NCBI RefSeq assembly: GCF_001677475.2
Contig: NZ_CP015229.1
Strand: one strand, 5' to 3'
Length of the DNA: 64,000 bases
From: Escherichia coli
GTDB lineage: Bacteria; Pseudomonadota; Gammaproteobacteria; Enterobacterales; Enterobacteriaceae
Both the position numbers and the translations under genes were made by a program. This document shows positions 25,175 through 33,587 of this stretch, in pieces. Numbering within the stretch: the first letter of the stretch is position 1; every line of letters starts with the position of its first letter. Below the pieces are notes generated by a model, which made no database searches, had not been told where the DNA came from, and worked only from the letters and a program-made list of their open reading frames with translations.

Positions 25175-25933
25175 ATGAAAATTCGCGCCTTATTGGTAGC
25201 AATGAGCGTGGCAACGGTACTGACCGGTTGCCAGAATATGGACTCCAACGGACTGCTCTCATCAGGAGCGGAAGCTTTTCAGGCTTACAGTTTGAGTGAT
25301 GCGCAGGTGAAAACCCTGAGCGATCAGGCATGTCAGGAGATGGACAGCAAGGCGACGATTGCGCCAGCCAATAGCGAATACGCTAAACGTCTGACAACTA
25401 TTGCCAATGCGCTAGGCAACAATATCAACGGTCAGCCGGTGAATTACAAAGTGTATATGGCGAAGGATGTGAACGCCTTTGCAATGGCTAACGGCTGTAT
25501 CCGCGTCTATAGCGGGCTGATGGATATGATGACGGATAACGAAGTCGAAGCGGTGATCGGTCACGAGATGGGGCACGTGGCGTTAGGCCATGTGAAAAAA
25601 GGGATGCAGGTGGCGCTTGGTACAAATGCCGTGCGAGTAGCTGCGGCCTCTGCGGGCGGGATTGTCGGCAGTTTATCGCAATCACAACTTGGTGATCTGG
25701 GCGAGAAATTAGTCAATTCGCAATTCTCCCAGCGCCAGGAAGCAGAAGCCGATGATTACTCTTATGATCTTCTGCGCCAACGCGGCATCAGCCCGGCAGG
25801 TCTTGCCACCAGCTTTGAAAAACTGGCGAAACTGGAAGAAGGCCGCCAAAGCTCAATGTTTGACGACCACCCAGCATCCGCCGAACGCGCCCAGCATATT
25901 CGCGATCGTATGAGCGCGGATGGGGTTAAGTGA
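25175..25933 (+). CDS. loiP: M48-family Zn-metalloprotease lipoprotein LoiP
   Basis: ATG at 25175; lipobox VLTGC; HEMGH zinc motif; the 73-codon upstream extension in the ORF track was not used. Confidence 0.85.
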   Translation: MKIRALLVAMSVATVLTGCQNMDSNGLLSSGAEAFQAYSLSDAQVKTLSDQACQEMDSKATIAPANSEYAKRLTTIANALGNNINGQPVNYKVYMAKDVNAFAMANGCIRVYSGLMDMMTDNEVEAVIGHEMGHVALGHVKKGMQVALGTNAVRVAAASAGGIVGSLSQSQLGDLGEKLVNSQFSQRQEAEADDYSYDLLRQRGISPAGLATSFEKLAKLEEGRQSSMFDDHPASAERAQHIRDRMSADGVK

Positions 25934-26018
25934 TTTCATATTTCTCCGACAGGAATGTCGGAGAAATTTTCATTCAGGATCGGTCACAGTCATTAAACAA
26001 GCTCAATCATTGGGGGCA

Positions 26019-27581
26019 TCAATTCGCTTCGTAGATTGCTTTATCCGGTGTATCCGATTGCACCTCTACTACATCGGCAGTGCTTACGCCACAAGCCCAG
26101 GCAAAAGCCGTCTCTGTTCCTTCAGGTAATGGAGTATCCCAGGGTAAAGTACGCCACGGACTCCCCTGCTCTTTTAATAAAGATGTAATGGCTTTCTTAA
26201 AAAGAATATGGGTAATCAGGTGCCGTTTATCCGTTGCTTTCCAGTACCAACGGGCCAGCAAAAAATGTCCGGCCAATTCGCGCCAGCTTCTGTAATGTTG
26301 CTGTACGCGTCTGGCTGCCAGCATCGAAAAATCGACCATTTCACGCTGGGTAATGTATCCCACTTGCGCCCCGCTATTACATAGCATGACAAAGCGCACC
26401 ATATCCCAGGCACAAAAATCTATGTCGCATATTTTACGTCGATTTTTTCTGACCATCTGTAGCTGCCACAAACGCTCTTTCGCTTCGCTACTTAATTTCG
26501 CGTTCTGAGCTAATTGCTGAGCGAACGCGCTATATTCAGCATCCGGCATTTCGCTATCGTTTTTGATCTGTTCTTCATAAACTGAACGATGCCCTGCTAC
26601 AAACAAAGCTAAGAGTTGCTCAAGTAACGAATCCCGATCAAAGACGCCCCACATGTCAGCAAGGGACTCAACTTCACTTTTGCAATCATTCTCTGCTTCC
26701 ACGGAATCATCATTAACGACTCGTCGCGCCCAGTGATTGTTACCCGCAATGGCATAAGGCGCGCCGACTGCCATTGCCCAACGTTCGGCAGCAGGAATTT
26801 TTTGAATTGAGGGATCTTTACAGGATGCTTTGAAAAGGCGATGTCCGGCGAACACCAGGCCATAACCAATCCACAAAACAGCCACCAAGGCGAGAATAAG
26901 TATTATCGCTACCAGATAAAGGGCATATTTGCCTATTGTCAGTAAGACATCCAGCCAGGAAGAGTCTGGCTCCGTAACTGTTTGCTCCACCGATGTCAAA
27001 GGGGACTTACTGACCCGCTCTGGCGCGGTCCTCGTCAACAGAGGGAAATCCCTATGTTGCTTGAATGAGCGTTTTTTAAGCAAATCTATTTTTTTCTGCA
27101 CCTCATCAGTAACCCGACCGTTTTTTTCAAACTCATGTAACGATGCAAAATCAATCGCCGCAATCTTCCATTTACCATCCCCTTCACGGATTAATTCCAT
27201 TGGAATATCAATATAAGATTGGTGACCAAAAAAAGCACCAATCTGCGCCTTGTCGCCTTCGACGAAGGTCGCTAAAGGATCGCTATAACTGGGGAAACGT
27301 CGTTTACACGTTTTGGGTGACTCTTGCCAGTATTTCAGTACAGGCTCCATTAAAGCAGGCGTAAATACTTGCTGCATTTCCACAAGGCGATCGTGCGAAT
27401 CTGTGCTGGTGACAAACTCAGGGCCACATAATGCGCGATAACTCTTTTTGACGACAGAGGAAATAGCTTCTTTGTCTTGTTGCAGCTGTGCGGCAATTTT
27501 CTGTTTTTCTGCTCTATCGCAGCCAGTTGATAAAAGAAATAACAAACAAAGAAGAGGCTTCCAGGGAAGAGTGCGTTCCAT
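26019..27581 (-). CDS. Hypothetical membrane-anchored lipoprotein (520 aa)
   Basis: Signal peptide with lipobox LLSTGC; internal hydrophobic segment LLTIGKYALYLVAIILILALVAVLWIGYGLVFAG; no recognisable catalytic motif. Confidence 0.5.
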   Translation of the reverse strand: MERTLPWKPLLCLLFLLSTGCDRAEKQKIAAQLQQDKEAISSVVKKSYRALCGPEFVTSTDSHDRLVEMQQVFTPALMEPVLKYWQESPKTCKRRFPSYSDPLATFVEGDKAQIGAFFGHQSYIDIPMELIREGDGKWKIAAIDFASLHEFEKNGRVTDEVQKKIDLLKKRSFKQHRDFPLLTRTAPERVSKSPLTSVEQTVTEPDSSWLDVLLTIGKYALYLVAIILILALVAVLWIGYGLVFAGHRLFKASCKDPSIQKIPAAERWAMAVGAPYAIAGNNHWARRVVNDDSVEAENDCKSEVESLADMWGVFDRDSLLEQLLALFVAGHRSVYEEQIKNDSEMPDAEYSAFAQQLAQNAKLSSEAKERLWQLQMVRKNRRKICDIDFCAWDMVRFVMLCNSGAQVGYITQREMVDFSMLAARRVQQHYRSWRELAGHFLLARWYWKATDKRHLITHILFKKAITSLLKEQGSPWRTLPWDTPLPEGTETAFAWACGVSTADVVEVQSDTPDKAIYEAN

Positions 27582-27730
27582 CTATTTATTCCATTAAAAA
27601 CACGGTAATAACAATCCATTAAAAAACAGCAGTCAGGGTAAAGATGACTTAATTAACAGGATAGGTTTTAAATGATAAGTCCCTTGTGCCAGACAAGGGA
27701 CTGTGCAAAAAATTCGACCAGGCAGGTTAC

Positions 27731-28651
27731 TTACTCGCCCTTTTTCGCCGCCTGAATATACAGCATCTCCAGCGCCAGCGTTGCCGCTGCCAGAGCAGTG
27801 ATTTCCGACTGATCGTATGCCGGAGCCACTTCCACTACGTCCATCCCAACGATGTTGAGATCTTTCAGGCCGCGTACCAGTTTAATGGCGCGATCGGAGG
27901 TCAGGCCGCCAATTACCGGCGTACCGGTGCCTGGTGCAAAAGCAGGATCCAGGCAGTCGATATCAAAGGTCAGGTAAACCGGCATATCACCCACAATCTG
28001 TTTCACCTGGGCGATAACATCATCCACGCTGCGATCGTTCACCTGGCAGGCGTCCAGCACGGTAAAGCCGTTGTCTTTATCAAACTCGGTACGAATACCA
28101 ATCTGCACGGAATGATTCGGGTCAATCAGACCTTCTTTTGGCGCGGTATAGAACATCGTGCCGTGGTCAAATTCACAACCGTTCGCATAGGTATCGGTGT
28201 GAGCGTCAAAGTGTACCAGCGCCATTTTGCCGAAATGTTTTGCATGGGCGCGCAGCAGCGGCAGCGTAACAAAGTGGTCACCACCGAAGGAGAGCATACG
28301 CTTACCGGCAGCCAGCAGTTTCTCTGCGTGCGCCTGCAATTTCTCGCTCATCTCACGGGCATCGCCGAAGGCATATACCAGATCGCCGCAGTCCACGACG
28401 TTCAGGCGCTCGCGCATGTCGAAATTCCACGGGAAACGGTTGTGTTCCCAGGCCAGGTTAGTTGATACCTGACGGATAGCCGCCGGACCGTGACGACCAC
28501 CCGCACGACCAGAAGTGGCCATATCGAACGGTACGCCGGTAATCACCCAGTCAGCATCGCTGTCATACGGCTGGAAGTTCATCGGCAGGCGTAAAAAACC
28601 AAAGGCGTTGGAAACCAGTGAGTTATCGTATTGATGCCCTAAGGTGCTCAT
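27731..28651 (-). CDS. speB: Agmatinase
   Basis: 306-aa ORF, arginase-fold Mn-binding motifs (GGDHF, DAHTD). Confidence 0.9.
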
Positions 28652-28680
28652 GGATGGACTCCTATTACAAAGTCGATATA

Positions 28681-28730
28681 AAAAAACCCTTCCGCGTCGT
28701 TAGGCCCGACGAGGAAGGGTTGGATTTGCG
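28681..28730 (-). terminator. Rho-independent terminator downstream of the 243-aa lipoprotein gene
   Basis: Stem aacccttcc/ggaagggtt followed on the minus strand by TTTTTT. Confidence 0.55.
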
Positions 28731-28786
28731 AAACACAAGTTTGTGCTAATTATCGCCTTAAATGGGCGAGGCATCAAGCGAGGTTG

Positions 28787-29518
28787 CTATTTCCGACACG
28801 GTGGCGGCGCATAGCCATTGTTATCTGCTGGAAAAGCTTGTCCAGAGCACGGTGGCAGCGCGTTTTGCGCCGGGCCTTGTAATTCAAAGGCGGCAAAGCC
28901 GATTACCCCGGTATTACGCACATCGCCTTGCGCCGAATTGGCGGCGTAGGAATCAGCAACGTTGGCGAACTGAAAAGCCGCTTCGGTATGTTTATCTTTG
29001 CGGAATCCTTTAATCGCTAACGAATCTCCGGCATTCACAATATAACCGTTGTTATTCAGCGAACCTTGCTTGCCGTTCAGCACATCCAGGCCATCAACCG
29101 TAGCAACGATCTCGTAATTGGTGTTCCGGCTGTAGTTACGGACATATAATTGATAATTCATCCCCACTCTGGCATGAACAATATATCGCGGTTCATTATT
29201 TGATGAATCATAAACTCGCGTAATAGGTAGAGAATTAAAATTCGCATCACGAATAGCATATTCCAGTTCGTTAATACGAATGCTATAAACACGGTCGTAG
29301 CCGGAAGGAATATTTGTCGAATAATTAATAACGATCATCTCTGCCGGATCGCGCCAGGCGCGTTCAGCAGATACGCCCTGAACCGTTGAGTGCACATCTC
29401 CACCCCAGGCAGTGCCGACATTGCCCGATGCACTGCTATTATACTGCGCATTACTTGAGCAACCAGCCAACAACACGACTAATGCCACCAACGCGCTACG
29501 TACTTTCCATTTTTTCAT
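28787..29518 (-). CDS. Hypothetical lipoprotein (243 aa)
   Basis: Signal peptide MKKWKVRSALVALVVLLAGCSS with lipobox; Asn/Ser/Tyr-rich mature part. Confidence 0.5.
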   Translation of the reverse strand: MKKWKVRSALVALVVLLAGCSSNAQYNSSASGNVGTAWGGDVHSTVQGVSAERAWRDPAEMIVINYSTNIPSGYDRVYSIRINELEYAIRDANFNSLPITRVYDSSNNEPRYIVHARVGMNYQLYVRNYSRNTNYEIVATVDGLDVLNGKQGSLNNNGYIVNAGDSLAIKGFRKDKHTEAAFQFANVADSYAANSAQGDVRNTGVIGFAAFELQGPAQNALPPCSGQAFPADNNGYAPPPCRK

Positions 29519-29595
29519 TACCGTTCCCTCTATTTAATTAATACAGCGATTGTAGGGGGGTTATTTAATAATAAAAGCAGCCAAATTATTTTTAA

Positions 29596-29643
29596 GAATA
29601 TATAAAAAGAAAGCGGGCCGATTTACGTAAATAAATCGACCCG
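29596..29643 (-). terminator. Putative terminator of speA
   Basis: Imperfect hairpin gcgggccgattta / taaatcgacccgc followed on the minus strand by a T-rich run. Confidence 0.45.
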
Positions 29644-29661
29644 CCAGCGGAATAATCTTAA

Positions 29662-31638
29662 TTATTCATCTTCAAGATAGGTATATCCGTACAACCCTGC
29701 CTCGAACTCTTCAAGGAACTGTTGTTGCAATTCAGCATCAAGATCGGTTTTCTTCACTTGATCACGGAACTGAGTTAACAGCGTTTTCGGATCGAGCTGT
29801 ACATATTGCAGCATGTCCGCCACGGTATCGCCTTCGTCAGACAGTTCTACTTCTACGCTACCGTCAGGGAAGACGAACACGTCAACCGCTTCGGTATCAC
29901 CGAACAGGTTGTGCATATTGCCGAGGATCTCCTGATATGCGCCGACCATAAAGAAACCGAGCATCGGCGGATTCTCCGGATCGTACTCCGGCATTGGCAT
30001 TGTCGTGGCAATACCGTCACCATCAATATAGTGGTCGATAGCACCGTCAGAGTCACAGGTAATATCCAGCAACACAGCGCGGCGTTCCGGCACTTGATCC
30101 AGCCCTTCCAGCGGCAGAACCGGGAACAACTGGTCGATCCCCCATGCGTCCGGCATCGACTGGAACAGCGAGAAGTTGACGTACATTTTGTCCGCCATAC
30201 GTTCCTGCAGCTCGTCGATAATCGGGCGATGCGCACGGTTTTGCGGATCCAGTTGCTTCTGCACTTCATGGCACATGCTCAGATAGAGTTGTTCTGCCCA
30301 TGCACGTTCTTGCAGATTGTAAGTGCCCGAAGAGTATCCGATATGAATATCGTGCAGATCCATCTGGCTGTCATGCAGCCACTCACGCAGAGAACGGCGA
30401 GTCCCCGGTTCGTGCATTTCCTGCCAGGTTTCCCACATGCTTTGCAGGGCGCGCGGTGCGTCTTCTGCAGGTGCGGTCGGCACCGTGTATTCGTTACGTT
30501 CCACGCCGATGATATTTGACACCAGCACGGTGTGATGCGCAGTCACCGCACGACCCGACTCGGTGATTACCGTCGGATGCGGCAGACCATTTTCTTCACA
30601 CGCATCACCAATCGCCCAGATGATGTTGTTAGCGTATTCATTGAGGCCGTAGTTCACCGAACAGTCGGACTGCGAACGGGTGCCTTCATAATCCACGCCC
30701 AGGCCGCCGCCGACGTCGAAGCACTGAATATTGACGCCCAGCTTGTGCAGTTCCACATAGAAACGCGCGGATTCACGAACGCCTGTCGCGATATCGCGAA
30801 TATTCGCCATCTGCGAACCGAGGTGGAAGTGCAGCAGTTGCAGACTGTCGAGACGCCCGGCTTCACGCAGCGTTTCAACCAGTTGCAGTACCTGAGTCGC
30901 AGCCAGGCCGAACTTCGATTTTTCCCCGCCGGAGGACTGCCATTTACCGGAGCCCTGCGAAGCCAGACGTGCACGCACGCCCAGACGAGGAACGACATTC
31001 AGACGTTCTGCTTCATCCAGCACAATGGCAATTTCTGACATCTTCTCAATGACCAGATAGACCTTGTGGCCCATCTTCTCGCCAATTAATGCCAGGCGGA
31101 TATATTCGCGGTCCTTATAACCGTTGCAAACGATGACGCTACGGGTCATGCCAGCATGTGCCAGCACCGCCATCAACTCCGCTTTGGAACCGGCTTCCAG
31201 GCCCAGCGGTTCGCCCGAATGAATCAGGGACTCAATCACGCGGCGGTGCTGGTTAACTTTGATCGGATAAACGAGGAAGTAATCGCCGTTATAGCCGTAG
31301 GATTCCCGCGCACGTTTGAACGCGGCGTTAATAGAACGCAAACGGTGCTGCAGGATCTGTGGGAAACAGAACAGTGCAGGCAGACGCTGGCCCTGTGCTT
31401 CACGAGTTTTCACTAACTGCGCGAGATCGACGCGAGCTTCCGGGACGTCCGGGTCCGGGCACACGCTAATGTGGCCCAGCTCGTTAACGTCATAGTAGTT
31501 ATTGCCCCACCAGGCAATATTGTAAGTACGCAGCATCTTGCTGGCTTCCTGGGAGCTCATTGCAACCTCCTGCATGGAGCGTAGTACACCGTGTTCGCCC
31601 GCTGACGAAGGCAAACCCATAGACATGTCGTCAGACAT
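29662..31638 (-). CDS. speA: Biosynthetic arginine decarboxylase
   Basis: Protein starts [21 protein letters not shown] (658 aa); 4-codon upstream extension not used. Confidence 0.9.
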
Positions 31639-31646
31639 AGCGAACC

Positions 31647-31778
31647 TCAAATTATTTTATTAAGTGTAAAACAGTTAACGACTATCGCAGCCTGGAACTG
31701 CGATAACAACCCATAAGCACATGGATTTTCCAGCAGTGAATGCTGACGCTCCAACTGCGCAACCGGTTTCTTTTTCAT
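31647..31778 (-). CDS. yqgB: Small protein YqgB (43 aa) immediately upstream of speA
   Basis: Minus-strand translation by eye gives [43 protein letters not shown]; its stop lies 8 bp before the speA start; too short for the ORF track. Confidence 0.7.
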
Positions 31779-31913
31779 AACATTATTAAGCACATAACCG
31801 AACGTAAGTGTGACAGTTCGGCGAAACCACGAGAAAACTCTTGTTTTTACAAGAGCGCCCTTGTTCAGTCCTCAGTAACTGTAACCAGCTCTTGAATCCT
31901 GAGAAGCGCCGAG

Positions 31914-32129
31914 ATGGGTATAACATCGGCAGGTATGCAAAGCAGAGATGCAGAGTGCGGGGAACGAATCTTCACCAGAACGGTGAGACAGGTTAAGCAG
32001 CAGACAACGGTTCATTATTTCGTATCACCTCCACGGCCGCCTGTTAAGACGAACCCACAAGCCAAAACTCTGATTTCAACCCGGCTGGAAGTGGCAACAC
32101 GAAAGAAACGTCGTGTGCTTTTTATTTAA
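31914..32129 (+). CDS. Small ORF at the position of yqgC (71 aa), doubtful
   Basis: 71-aa ORF in the speA-metK intergenic region; length matches the annotated K-12 yqgC as recalled, sequence not verified. Confidence 0.25.
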
Positions 32130-32432
32130 GCCGCGCGCCGCGTTTTATACCCCACAATGGCAGAAAATTGCAAAAGATAAATACGCAGAATGCCGGCATT
32201 GTCAGGAAAAATTTCCAGCCACGTTTTTAACAGAATGAGACACGATTCAAAAAAAAGTGGAAATAGGGTGAAGAATTGACCTAAAATAGCCGTCCAGATG
32301 TTAATCCATCCATACCGATTAACACTCAGACTGCCAGTGTTTTTAACCTGCAGAGTCGTGGTAGGATCCGCTACCACAGAAAATCCACACAACAGTTTGA
32401 GCTAACCAAATTCTCTTTAGGTGATATTAAAT

Positions 32433-33587
32433 ATGGCAAAACACCTTTTTACGTCCGAGTCCGTCTCTGAAGGGCATCCTGACAAAATTGCTGACCAAAT
32501 CTCTGATGCCGTTTTAGACGCGATCCTCGAACAGGACCCGAAAGCACGCGTTGCTTGCGAAACCTACGTAAAAACCGGCATGGTTTTAGTTGGCGGCGAA
32601 ATCACCACCAGCGCCTGGGTAGACATCGAAGAGATCACCCGTAACACCGTTCGCGAAATTGGCTATGTACATTCCGACATGGGCTTTGACGCTAACTCCT
32701 GTGCGGTTCTGAGCGCTATCGGCAAACAGTCTCCTGACATCAACCAGGGCGTTGACCGTGCCGATCCGCTGGAACAGGGCGCGGGTGACCAGGGTCTGAT
32801 GTTTGGCTACGCAACTAATGAAACCGACGTGCTGATGCCAGCACCTATCACCTATGCACACCGTCTGGTACAGCGTCAGGCTGAAGTGCGTAAAAACGGC
32901 ACTCTGCCGTGGCTGCGCCCGGACGCGAAAAGCCAGGTGACTTTCCAGTATGACGACGGCAAAATCGTTGGTATTGATGCTGTCGTGCTTTCCACTCAGC
33001 ACTCTGAAGAGATCGACCAGAAATCGCTGCAAGAAGCGGTAATGGAAGAGATCATCAAGCCGATTCTGCCGGCTGAATGGCTGACTTCTGCCACCAAATT
33101 CTTCATCAACCCGACCGGTCGTTTCGTTATCGGTGGCCCAATGGGTGACTGCGGTCTGACTGGTCGTAAAATCATCGTTGATACCTACGGCGGCATGGCG
33201 CGTCACGGTGGCGGTGCATTCTCTGGTAAAGATCCATCAAAAGTGGACCGCTCCGCAGCCTACGCGGCACGTTATGTAGCGAAAAACATCGTTGCTGCAG
33301 GTCTGGCCGACCGTTGTGAAATTCAGGTTTCCTACGCGATCGGCGTGGCAGAACCGACCTCCATCATGGTCGAAACTTTCGGTACTGAGAAAGTACCTTC
33401 TGAACAGCTGACCCTGCTGGTACGTGAGTTCTTCGACCTGCGCCCATACGGTCTGATTCAGATGCTGGATCTGCTGCACCCGATCTACAAAGAAACCGCA
33501 GCATACGGTCACTTTGGTCGTGAACATTTCCCGTGGGAAAAAACCGACAAAGCGCAGCTGCTGCGCGATGCTGCCGGTCTGAAGTAA
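32433..33587 (+). CDS. metK: S-adenosylmethionine synthetase
   Basis: Protein starts [32 protein letters not shown] (384 aa); 4-codon upstream extension not used. Confidence 0.95.

Follow-up and report, generated by a model that had tools for sequence, protein, structure and literature searches.

A lipoprotein gene between speA and speB of Escherichia coli is probably a long-standing resident, and the hairpin upstream of speB probably belongs with speB

Introduction

In Escherichia coli K-12, speA and speB are adjacent; in the DNA considered here, a lipoprotein gene lies between them. Is such a gene a strain-specific arrival that uncouples its neighbors, or an established part of the locus that K-12 lacks? 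The first-pass annotation of the window (the whole stretch of 64,000 nucleotides that was analysed, from contig NZ_CP015229.1) leaned to the former view: a lipoprotein gene with a terminator of its own, whose position between speA and speB may uncouple their transcription in this strain relative to K-12. We prefer a different reading, to which we give a probability of roughly 0.8. It holds that the interval probably comprises three transcription units around a lipoprotein gene long resident in Enterobacteriaceae, that the K-12 layout is derived, and that the hairpin closest to speB (T2) goes with speB.

Layout of the speA-speB interval

The order of elements in the gene-bearing layout, read along the minus strand, is speA, a first hairpin (T1), a promoter region, the lipoprotein gene, a promoter-like site, a second hairpin (T2), and speB (Table 1). 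The SpeB encoded in the window is 100% identical to the RefSeq speB product, and SpeA is ~100% identical to the RefSeq-annotated speA product of K-12 and EDL933. That a lipoprotein gene occupies the space between them, as had been proposed, is confirmed by the list of open reading frames and by the lipobox (see below). Its ATG has a GAGGGAA ribosome-binding site 5 nt to its 5' side.

Table 1. Features of the speA-speB interval. Positions are those of the window; an empty cell means that no entry applies.
Feature	Position	Strand	Details	Source
speB, agmatinase	27731..28651	minus	306 aa	ORF list
T2, hairpin and T-run	28680..28721	minus	hairpin 28721-28685; T-run 28686-28680	
Promoter-like site, TTGATG-17 nt-GATAAT	28749..28777	minus	9 nt after the lipoprotein stop codon	scan
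Lipoprotein gene	28787..29518	minus	243 aa, ATG start	ORF list
AT-rich upstream region of the lipoprotein gene	29549..29595	minus	TTAAAA-16-TATTAT, 29595-29568; TACAAT, 29554-29549	consensus scan
T1, intrinsic-terminator-like hairpin	29602..29645	minus	hairpin 29645-29612, then TTCTTTTTAT	terminator scan
speA, biosynthetic arginine decarboxylase	29662..31638	minus	658 aa from ATG 31638; mechanical ORF of the ORF list from TTG 31650	

In K-12 (MC1061) the lipoprotein gene is missing, and speB and speA are separated by a 137-nt intergenic region. After the speA stop codon come a 67-nt spacer, the T2 hairpin, and speB, so that the order reduces to speA, promoter-like site, T2, speB. A three-way alignment of the window, K-12, and EDL933 indicates exactly what differs. 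The two layouts share the flanking genes, T2 and the speB ribosome-binding site (both 100% identical in K-12), and the -35 and -10 elements of the promoter-like site at the same spacing. T1, the AT-rich region upstream of the lipoprotein gene, and the whole ORF all fall within the segment that is missing from the K-12 row, and the 67-nt spacer is only ~51% identical to the homologous segment of the window.

Two alleles in E. coli

Comparison with K-12 and other E. coli had been proposed as the check on this locus. The gene is absent at the K-12 position and is present in E. coli O157:H7 EDL933 (P7249_RS04220), where it occupies the equivalent site, with speB and speA on either side; its product (WP_000758914.1, annotated in RefSeq as "lipoprotein") is 98% identical to that of the window, and the 1.1-kb region is 95.5% identical. 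Of the 5426 complete RefSeq genomes of E. coli, 3550 (65%) contain the lipoprotein region, where presence means at least 80% of the 1.1-kb query. The intact K-12 junction (at least 98.5% identity) occurs in 1863 (34%). This count, together with the MC1061 region, bears out the earlier statement that in K-12 the gene is absent and speA and speB are adjacent. The two classes account for all but ~13 of the 5426 genomes, and the remainder likely carry partial copies or copies disrupted by IS elements (H15 and H20 are examples). E. coli is cleanly polymorphic for two alleles at this site, and K-12 represents the minority, a single shared gene-less allele.

The window allele is more divergent than the EDL933-type records. 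Its best matches among the complete E. coli genomes are 96.0% for the lipoprotein region (full-length nucleotide match), 97.9% for speA, and 98.8% for the loiP-speB interval, which points to a divergent Escherichia lineage as the source of the window. The exact window protein is recorded as E. coli ANO90762.1. Other E. coli records of the gene, which number in the thousands of genomes, carry the labels "hypothetical protein" or "membrane protein," and none has an assigned function.

The hairpin upstream of speB

The strong hairpin terminator that had been placed at 28685-28721 is indeed there, with exactly that span. T2 consists of 14 pairs around one mismatch (dG -24.4 kcal/mol, z = -4.6; 0 of 200 shuffles fold as well), and then come seven T residues, two of them in pairs. 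This is a G+C-rich stem-loop directly before a U-tract, i.e., the form of an intrinsic terminator. The structure is strongly conserved: in an alignment of 12 sequences from six genera, each sequence retains all 14 pairs (100% of cells pair). Ten of the pairs never vary and two vary with compensation, and no changes are seen in the inner stem or in most of the loop. The spacer just upstream of T2 is, by comparison, only 40%-70% identical between genera. In Phytobacter and Kosakonia, this position is occupied by a different sequence.

The part of the earlier claim that fails concerns ownership. T2 had been described as the lipoprotein gene's own terminator, yet it is identical in K-12, which has no lipoprotein gene, and it stays with speB in Salmonella. 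There, a 7.6-kb island lies between the lipoprotein gene and speB, and the hairpin (AAACCCTTCCTCGTCGGGCCTAACGACGCGGGAGGG plus a T-run) is found at the far end of that island, 7.6 kb from the lipoprotein gene and ~35 nt upstream of the speB ATG. In the Salmonella sequence that follows the lipoprotein stop codon, no hairpin comparable to T2 was found. In published Term-seq data for MG1655 (PMC7815308, supplementary files 1 and 3), a transcript 3' end maps to 3083827(-), which is 30 nt before the speB ORF, and the sequence context printed for this end is exactly T2; the end corresponds to window position 28681, within the T-run. Because of the identity in K-12, the retention next to speB in Salmonella, and the MG1655 3' end, T2 is best assigned to speB and not to the lipoprotein gene.

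The promoter-like site that follows the lipoprotein stop codon is relevant here. In 12 sequences from six genera, including K-12, the TTG of the -35 element and the GATAAT are invariant and the spacing is kept. According to the Methods of the Term-seq study, its table drops 3' ends that have no mapped transcription start site (TSS) upstream (within 200 bp, or farther if there is no intervening stop codon) as well as those with a TSS 20 bp or less upstream, and the speB -30 end was kept (PMC7815308). The retained end fits, and does not prove, a speB start at the promoter-like site, which would be predicted ~57 nt upstream of the 3' end. We consider TTGATG-17-GATAAT to be probably the speB promoter. 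T2 would then lie in the speB leader, and speB expression could depend on polymerase reading through T2, either partially or under regulation (antitermination), or on a weak promoter that overlaps T2 and its T-run.

Compatible with the preferred reading, and going a step beyond it, is the possibility that T2 and the promoter make up a regulated speB leader (an attenuator) or yield an RNA of ~60 nt with a U-tail. The invariance of the inner stem and most of the loop across six genera, set against the 40%-70% identity of the spacer, counts in favor of such a role, as do the location of the promoter-like site 27 nt upstream of the hairpin, the classification of the K-12 3' end as upstream of an ORF (a class that requires a TSS upstream), and the retention of the hairpin by speB after the Salmonella rearrangement. 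However, an Rfam scan of 27500-32500 at E <= 1 returned no family, reading of the sequence revealed neither an upstream antiterminator segment able to pair with the 5' arm of T2 nor a leader ORF, and Phytobacter and Kosakonia differ at this place. A plain, good terminator that insulates speB could also explain the conservation. Overall, we view a regulatory leader or small RNA as conceivable and somewhat doubtful.

A 13-nt complementarity between the 3' end of speA and the 5' arm of T2 was considered as an antiterminator and dropped, as it is weaker in K-12 and EDL933 and is at chance level.

A predicted terminator after speA and three candidate transcription units

T1 begins 16 nt after the speA stop codon and has 15 pairs (dG -23.4 kcal/mol, z -5.4). 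Its pairing is conserved by covariation: across 13 enterobacterial loci, 92% of cells pair and eight of the 15 pairs have changed on both sides, with slid controls all far lower. A stem-loop of conserved structure followed by a U-tract has the form of an intrinsic terminator, and T1 is on these grounds a predicted conserved terminator of speA. Incidentally, T1 went unmentioned in the first-pass annotation, and it is the terminator element that differs from K-12.

Downstream of T1, the lipoprotein gene appears to have its own AT-rich promoter region. Direct reading of the Salmonella, Klebsiella, and Citrobacter sequences shows a -10 box of the TAC-A-T type in the corresponding position. We regard this region as a putative promoter.

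Taken together, these elements suggest a model of three tandem transcription units on the minus strand, for speA, the lipoprotein gene, and speB. The speA unit would end at its own terminator, T1. The lipoprotein gene would be monocistronic and transcribed from its own AT-rich promoter region, and the speB unit would start at the promoter-like site and pass through T2 in its leader. In K-12, speA would run straight into the speB promoter region and T2. Judged from sequence only, the lipoprotein gene does not look like a member of a speAB operon, with T1 upstream of it and the promoter-like site and T2 downstream. The use of T1, of the lipoprotein promoter, and of the speB promoter is predicted in this model.

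How much does the gene matter for the coupling of speA and speB? The idea of an insertion that uncouples them draws on two facts, namely that K-12 does not have the gene and that, in the gene-bearing layout, two hairpin terminators and 0.9 kb lie between speA and speB. But 65% of complete E. coli genomes have the gene, as does every sampled enterobacterial genus with an ortholog; T2, the terminator invoked, has an identical copy in K-12, where it already gives a 3' end, and it stays with speB in Salmonella; and the promoter-like site precedes speB in both layouts. An insertion of this kind is therefore largely refuted on polarity and on terminator ownership, and we consider it improbable. The gene-bearing layout would add 0.9 kb and, in T1, one further barrier to read-through from speA; it would not create the separation, because T2 already yields an RNA 3' end in K-12. 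Any extra uncoupling due to the lipoprotein gene is likely small or modest, since speB probably has its own start in both layouts, given that the promoter-like site is conserved, K-12 included.

Ancestry of the locus

The order speA-lipoprotein gene-speB was found in Klebsiella and in 14 further loci, representing nine genera: Escherichia, Citrobacter, Kluyvera, Klebsiella, Intestinirhabdus, Phytobacter, Kosakonia, Entomohabitans, and an Enterobacter sp. The sample includes four other Escherichia species-level genomes, three Citrobacter species, and two Klebsiella species, and the order was seen at every enterobacterial ortholog locus for which both flanks are in the sequence, apart from the Salmonella arrangement described below. 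In E. albertii (L022), where the sequence ends at a contig end, the gene-speB part of the order was seen. Orthologs in the conserved order are 54%-97% identical at the protein level. In Salmonella, the lipoprotein gene follows speA, and the 7.6-kb island that then separates it from speB carries sugar-metabolism genes.

The ORF list contains no integrase, IS element, or tRNA at the lipoprotein locus, and a search for flanking direct repeats there gave chance-level matches only. The gene itself is constrained, with a dN/dS of 0.035-0.062 (versus Escherichia alleles). It is a real gene rather than a chance ORF, and it is under strong purifying selection. Because the gene has the same position across genera, because mobility genes are absent and flanking repeats are at chance level, and because of the low dN/dS, we consider it probably ancestral at this site and functional, and the gene-less layout derived. 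The reading of the locus as an insertion does not survive this comparison, as 3550 of 5426 E. coli genomes and nine genera share the speA-gene-speB order.

It should be noted that the composition of the gene is atypical for its neighborhood (GC 48% versus 54.5%, and GC3 45% versus 62%). This atypical composition, along with the patchy presence in E. coli, is what might lead one to propose that the gene is foreign cargo, a horizontally acquired islet between speA and speB. We find this very unlikely: position and orientation are the same in at least nine genera and divergence tracks the host (54%-97% identity), the locus has no integrase, IS element, or tRNA and its repeats are at chance level, dN/dS is 0.04, and the absence in E. 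coli amounts to one allele. Given the conserved synteny, weak expression fits the lower GC content better than recent import does.

How, then, did the K-12 allele arise from an ancestral, gene-bearing one? Over its full length, its 67-nt spacer can be aligned to the sequence that follows the lipoprotein gene, yet the identity is only ~51% whether compared with the window, E. coli L017, or E. albertii; these three are mutually 85%-97% identical. In contrast to the spacer, the flanks of the gene-less allele are 97%-99% identical to gene-bearing Escherichia, and those of K-12 and EDL933 differ by only 1%-2%. So divergent a spacer between such similar flanks does not look like the product of a simple recent deletion. 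The last two K-12 differences at the speA end (GAG and ACT) match Salmonella, and the GAG codon is also found in Klebsiella and Citrobacter. Import or remodelling, and not simple deletion, may thus account for the gene-less allele. One specific route was considered, in which the TTTTTATAT tails of T1 and T2, being similar, would have recombined and deleted the DNA between them; it was rejected, as K-12 keeps the promoter segment as well as T2.

The lipoprotein and its family

The N-terminus of the predicted protein reads MKKWKVRSALVALVVLLAG and then CSS, with a basic n-region, a hydrophobic core, and an L-A-G-C lipobox. The n- and h-regions (MKKWKVR, then SALVALVVLLAG) are those of a type II signal peptide. 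The lipobox occupies residues 17-20 and fits the pattern [LVI][ASTVI][GAS]C, and its cysteine, Cys20, is invariant in an alignment of 66 homologs. The signal peptide thus spans residues 1-19, and the codon for Cys20, the predicted lipidation site, lies at 29461-29459. By established E. coli lipoprotein rules, the protein would be processed at Cys20 by Lgt, LspA, and Lnt. In E. coli, under the +2 rule, lipoproteins without Asp at position +2 go to the outer membrane. Here the +2 residue is Ser (C-S-S), so sorting to the outer membrane via the Lol pathway is expected. In its type II signal peptide, LAGC lipobox, and non-Asp +2 residue the protein resembles classical Gram-negative outer-membrane lipoproteins with Lpp/Pal-type maturation (Lgt, LspA, Lnt, Lol); it differs from characterised lipoproteins in that no sequence or fold kinship to them was found (Pfam, NCBIfam, PDB, Foldseek). 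The earlier description of the protein as rich in Asn, Ser, and Tyr is partly right: Asn (10.3%) and Tyr (5.8%) are enriched and Ser stands at 8.2%, but Ala is the commonest residue (11.9%).

An initial homolog search gave 289 matches. At E <= 0.001, the family comprises 4205 clusters (50% identity), 561 of them at or below 1e-30, and extends over Enterobacteriaceae, Morganellaceae, Gilliamella, Neisseria, Kingella, P. aeruginosa PA7, Burkholderiales, and Rhodobacterales. Members are single-domain proteins of 230-385 aa, most with a lipobox. Family-invariant positions include C20, R53, Y66, Y122, N128, E136, a VDGLDV motif, GFRK, and the C-terminal AFPxD..YAPPP tail. Beside E136 and Y122, further invariant acidic or aromatic residues are D142, Y159, Y191, F172, and F182. 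The AlphaFold2 model (mean pLDDT 81, pTM 0.80) has a confidently predicted all-beta domain at residues 34-215, after which comes the conserved tail QAFPADNNGYAPPPC.

Attempts to connect the family to something better known gave little. Pfam and NCBIfam scans of the lipoprotein, and Pfam scans of ten distant relatives, yielded no usable family; a PDB sequence profile search returned zero matches; and the best Foldseek hit of the model to the PDB had an E-value of 0.05, thus no close solved fold. No catalytic motif was found in the mature part (the all-beta domain of ~180 residues). A literature search found no paper on the gene, and most of its matches concerned Streptococcus speB.

Gene neighborhoods were compared for the same family. 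In 35 loci outside Enterobacteriaceae and Comamonadaceae, no neighbor gene is common across genera. The sole apparent multi-genus neighbor cluster was rejected after it proved to be an antisense ORF within the lipoprotein gene itself. In Comamonadaceae (Variovorax, Acidovorax, Xenophilus, Comamonas), homologs with 36%-40% identity over the whole mature domain and the AFPxD..YAPPP tail lie inside the his operon between hisD and hisC, so that they too are placed between two genes of one biosynthetic pathway. They differ in that the host pathway is histidine and, in most loci, a small uncharacterised ORF of ~115 aa comes next; their N-terminal linkers are also longer, and these homologs are without the two C-terminal cysteines.

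We put at about even odds the proposal that the protein is a nonenzymatic envelope binding or scaffold protein, dispensable under many conditions. The dispensability would follow from the fact that one third of E. coli genomes are without the gene. A functional link could nonetheless underlie the conserved location of the gene, flanked as it is by two polyamine genes. Such a link would tie the lipoprotein to the agmatine/putrescine pathway (e.g., polyamine binding or handling at the envelope), and leakiness of T1 and T2 would allow the gene to be co-regulated with speA and speB. Acidic and aromatic residues occur in polyamine-binding sites, and the invariant E136, D142, Y122, Y159, Y191, F172, and F182 are of these kinds. 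The gene is also held between speA and speB across Enterobacteriaceae, and Trabulsiella has a 40%-identical paralog located two genes away from a speG-like acetyltransferase. However, a terminator and its own promoter region bracket the lipoprotein gene, and 34% of E. coli genomes have lost it without visible compensation, including K-12, in which polyamine synthesis is normal. Moreover, the Comamonadaceae homologs are in the his operon and others are in unrelated contexts, and the separation of the gene from speB by a 7.6-kb island is tolerated in Salmonella. On balance we think a polyamine role unlikely, and continue to prefer an envelope protein of binding or scaffold type encoded by a long-resident and probably separately transcribed gene.

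Discussion

Several of the more speculative possibilities can be combined: that the lipoprotein founds a large unnamed envelope family (at least 4200 clusters at 50% identity), that its position reflects a real link between polyamine or agmatine and the cell surface, that T2 and the promoter form a regulated leader or small RNA of speB, and that the loss of T1 and of the gene rewired the control of putrescine synthesis in K-12. Taken jointly, this seems to us quite improbable. If it were true, the T2 leader or small RNA might be the basis of the unexplained agmatine response of speB.

The preferred reading, i.e., three units with a long-resident lipoprotein gene and T2 in the company of speB, is more ordinary in kind. 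Thousands of genomes already carry an annotation for the gene, and its presence or absence is visible in any pan-genome. What is worth recording, and will not surprise a specialist, is that the K-12 state is probably derived, that T2 is probably a conserved feature of speB, and that there is a T1. The very strong conservation of T2, a hairpin in the probable speB leader, is noteworthy. The lipoprotein family, sizeable and with neither a name, a domain model, nor an informative structural relative, is a reasonable target for functional genomics. Finally, the reference K-12 speA-speB layout appears to be a derived, minority state (34% of complete genomes), and models of speA and speB regulation that come from K-12 should be read with this in mind, given that in most E. 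coli, and in other enterics, a further predicted terminator and a further gene lie between the two.

The gene-less speA-speB allele of K-12

The spacer between speA and speB in K-12, which lacks the lipoprotein gene, was compared with the homologous segment that accompanies the gene (K-12 locus L001, 4130-4192, vs. window 28722-28790). This 67-nt spacer is only ~51% identical to its counterpart in gene-bearing Escherichia, whereas the flanks are 97-99% identical, and K-12 speA shows the Salmonella state at its two final synonymous sites (one of them is shared also with Klebsiella and Citrobacter). Because of this combination, the sequences suggest that the K-12 allele was imported or remodelled, rather than generated by simple deletion of the gene.

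As judged from its sequence, the source of the window is not mainstream E. coli. Against 5426 complete RefSeq genomes, the best nucleotide identity is 96.0% for window 28600-29700, 97.9% for speA, and 98.8% for window 25900-27760. The lipoprotein allele groups with those of E. albertii, and the identical protein sequence (ANO90762.1) is recorded in 47 contigs labelled E. coli. Incidentally, the mechanical speA ORF begins at a TTG four codons 5' of the annotated ATG (window 31639-31650); the annotated start (MSDDMSMGL..., 658 aa) is consistent with RefSeq.

Conserved and variable elements around speB

The terminator hairpin upstream of speB (T2) is nearly invariant in the alignment, being kept across six genera, K-12 included, and it is still present after the rearrangement that separates the lipoprotein gene from speB in Salmonella. 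The promoter-like site of the speB leader is likewise conserved, paired with T2, and a Term-seq 3' end in MG1655 coincides with the hairpin. An Rfam scan of the leader with T2 returned no match to any family. T2 might act as a regulated attenuator, or give rise to a ~60-nt U-tailed RNA.

Insertions of ~140 nt with internal palindromes, REP- or ERIC-like, separate the promoter-like site from T2 in Citrobacter gillenii (L018, 2700-2850), and T2 from the ribosome-binding site of speB in Intestinirhabdus alba (L026, 4760-4920). T2 itself is intact in both despite these insertions.

A second strain-variable gene of the region, located between loiP and speB, encodes a DUF1266 protein whose N-terminus resembles that of a lipoprotein (LLSTG|CD, Asp at +2) and which has a hydrophobic segment in its central part. 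The GC content of the gene is 46%; of the 5426 complete E. coli genomes, only 210 carry it, and it is missing from K-12 and EDL933.

Features near speB in the window
Feature	Window position	Strand	Basis or location
speB leader: promoter-like site and T2	28680-28777	minus	conservation, Term-seq
520-aa DUF1266 protein gene	26019-27581	minus	Pfam E = 1.5e-29
Terminator-like hairpin	27702-27678	minus	upstream of DUF1266 gene, just past speB stop codon

The lipoprotein family in other gene contexts

Trabulsiella guamensis (L013/L039, 5001-5759) carries a 40% identical paralogue flanked by ynfD-like (DUF1161) and ynfC-like (UPF0257) genes, with a 185-aa speG-like acetyltransferase two genes away; this may be a second, coincidental association with a polyamine gene.

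In Comamonadaceae, lipoprotein homologues with 36-40% identity separate hisD from hisC within the histidine operon (L007, 6001-7171; L009, 6001-7233; and ~25 more loci among L049-L092). In the majority of these genomes they are followed by a conserved small ORF of ~115 aa, for which there was no Pfam match. The histidine operon is a second case of this lipoprotein family within a biosynthetic gene cluster.
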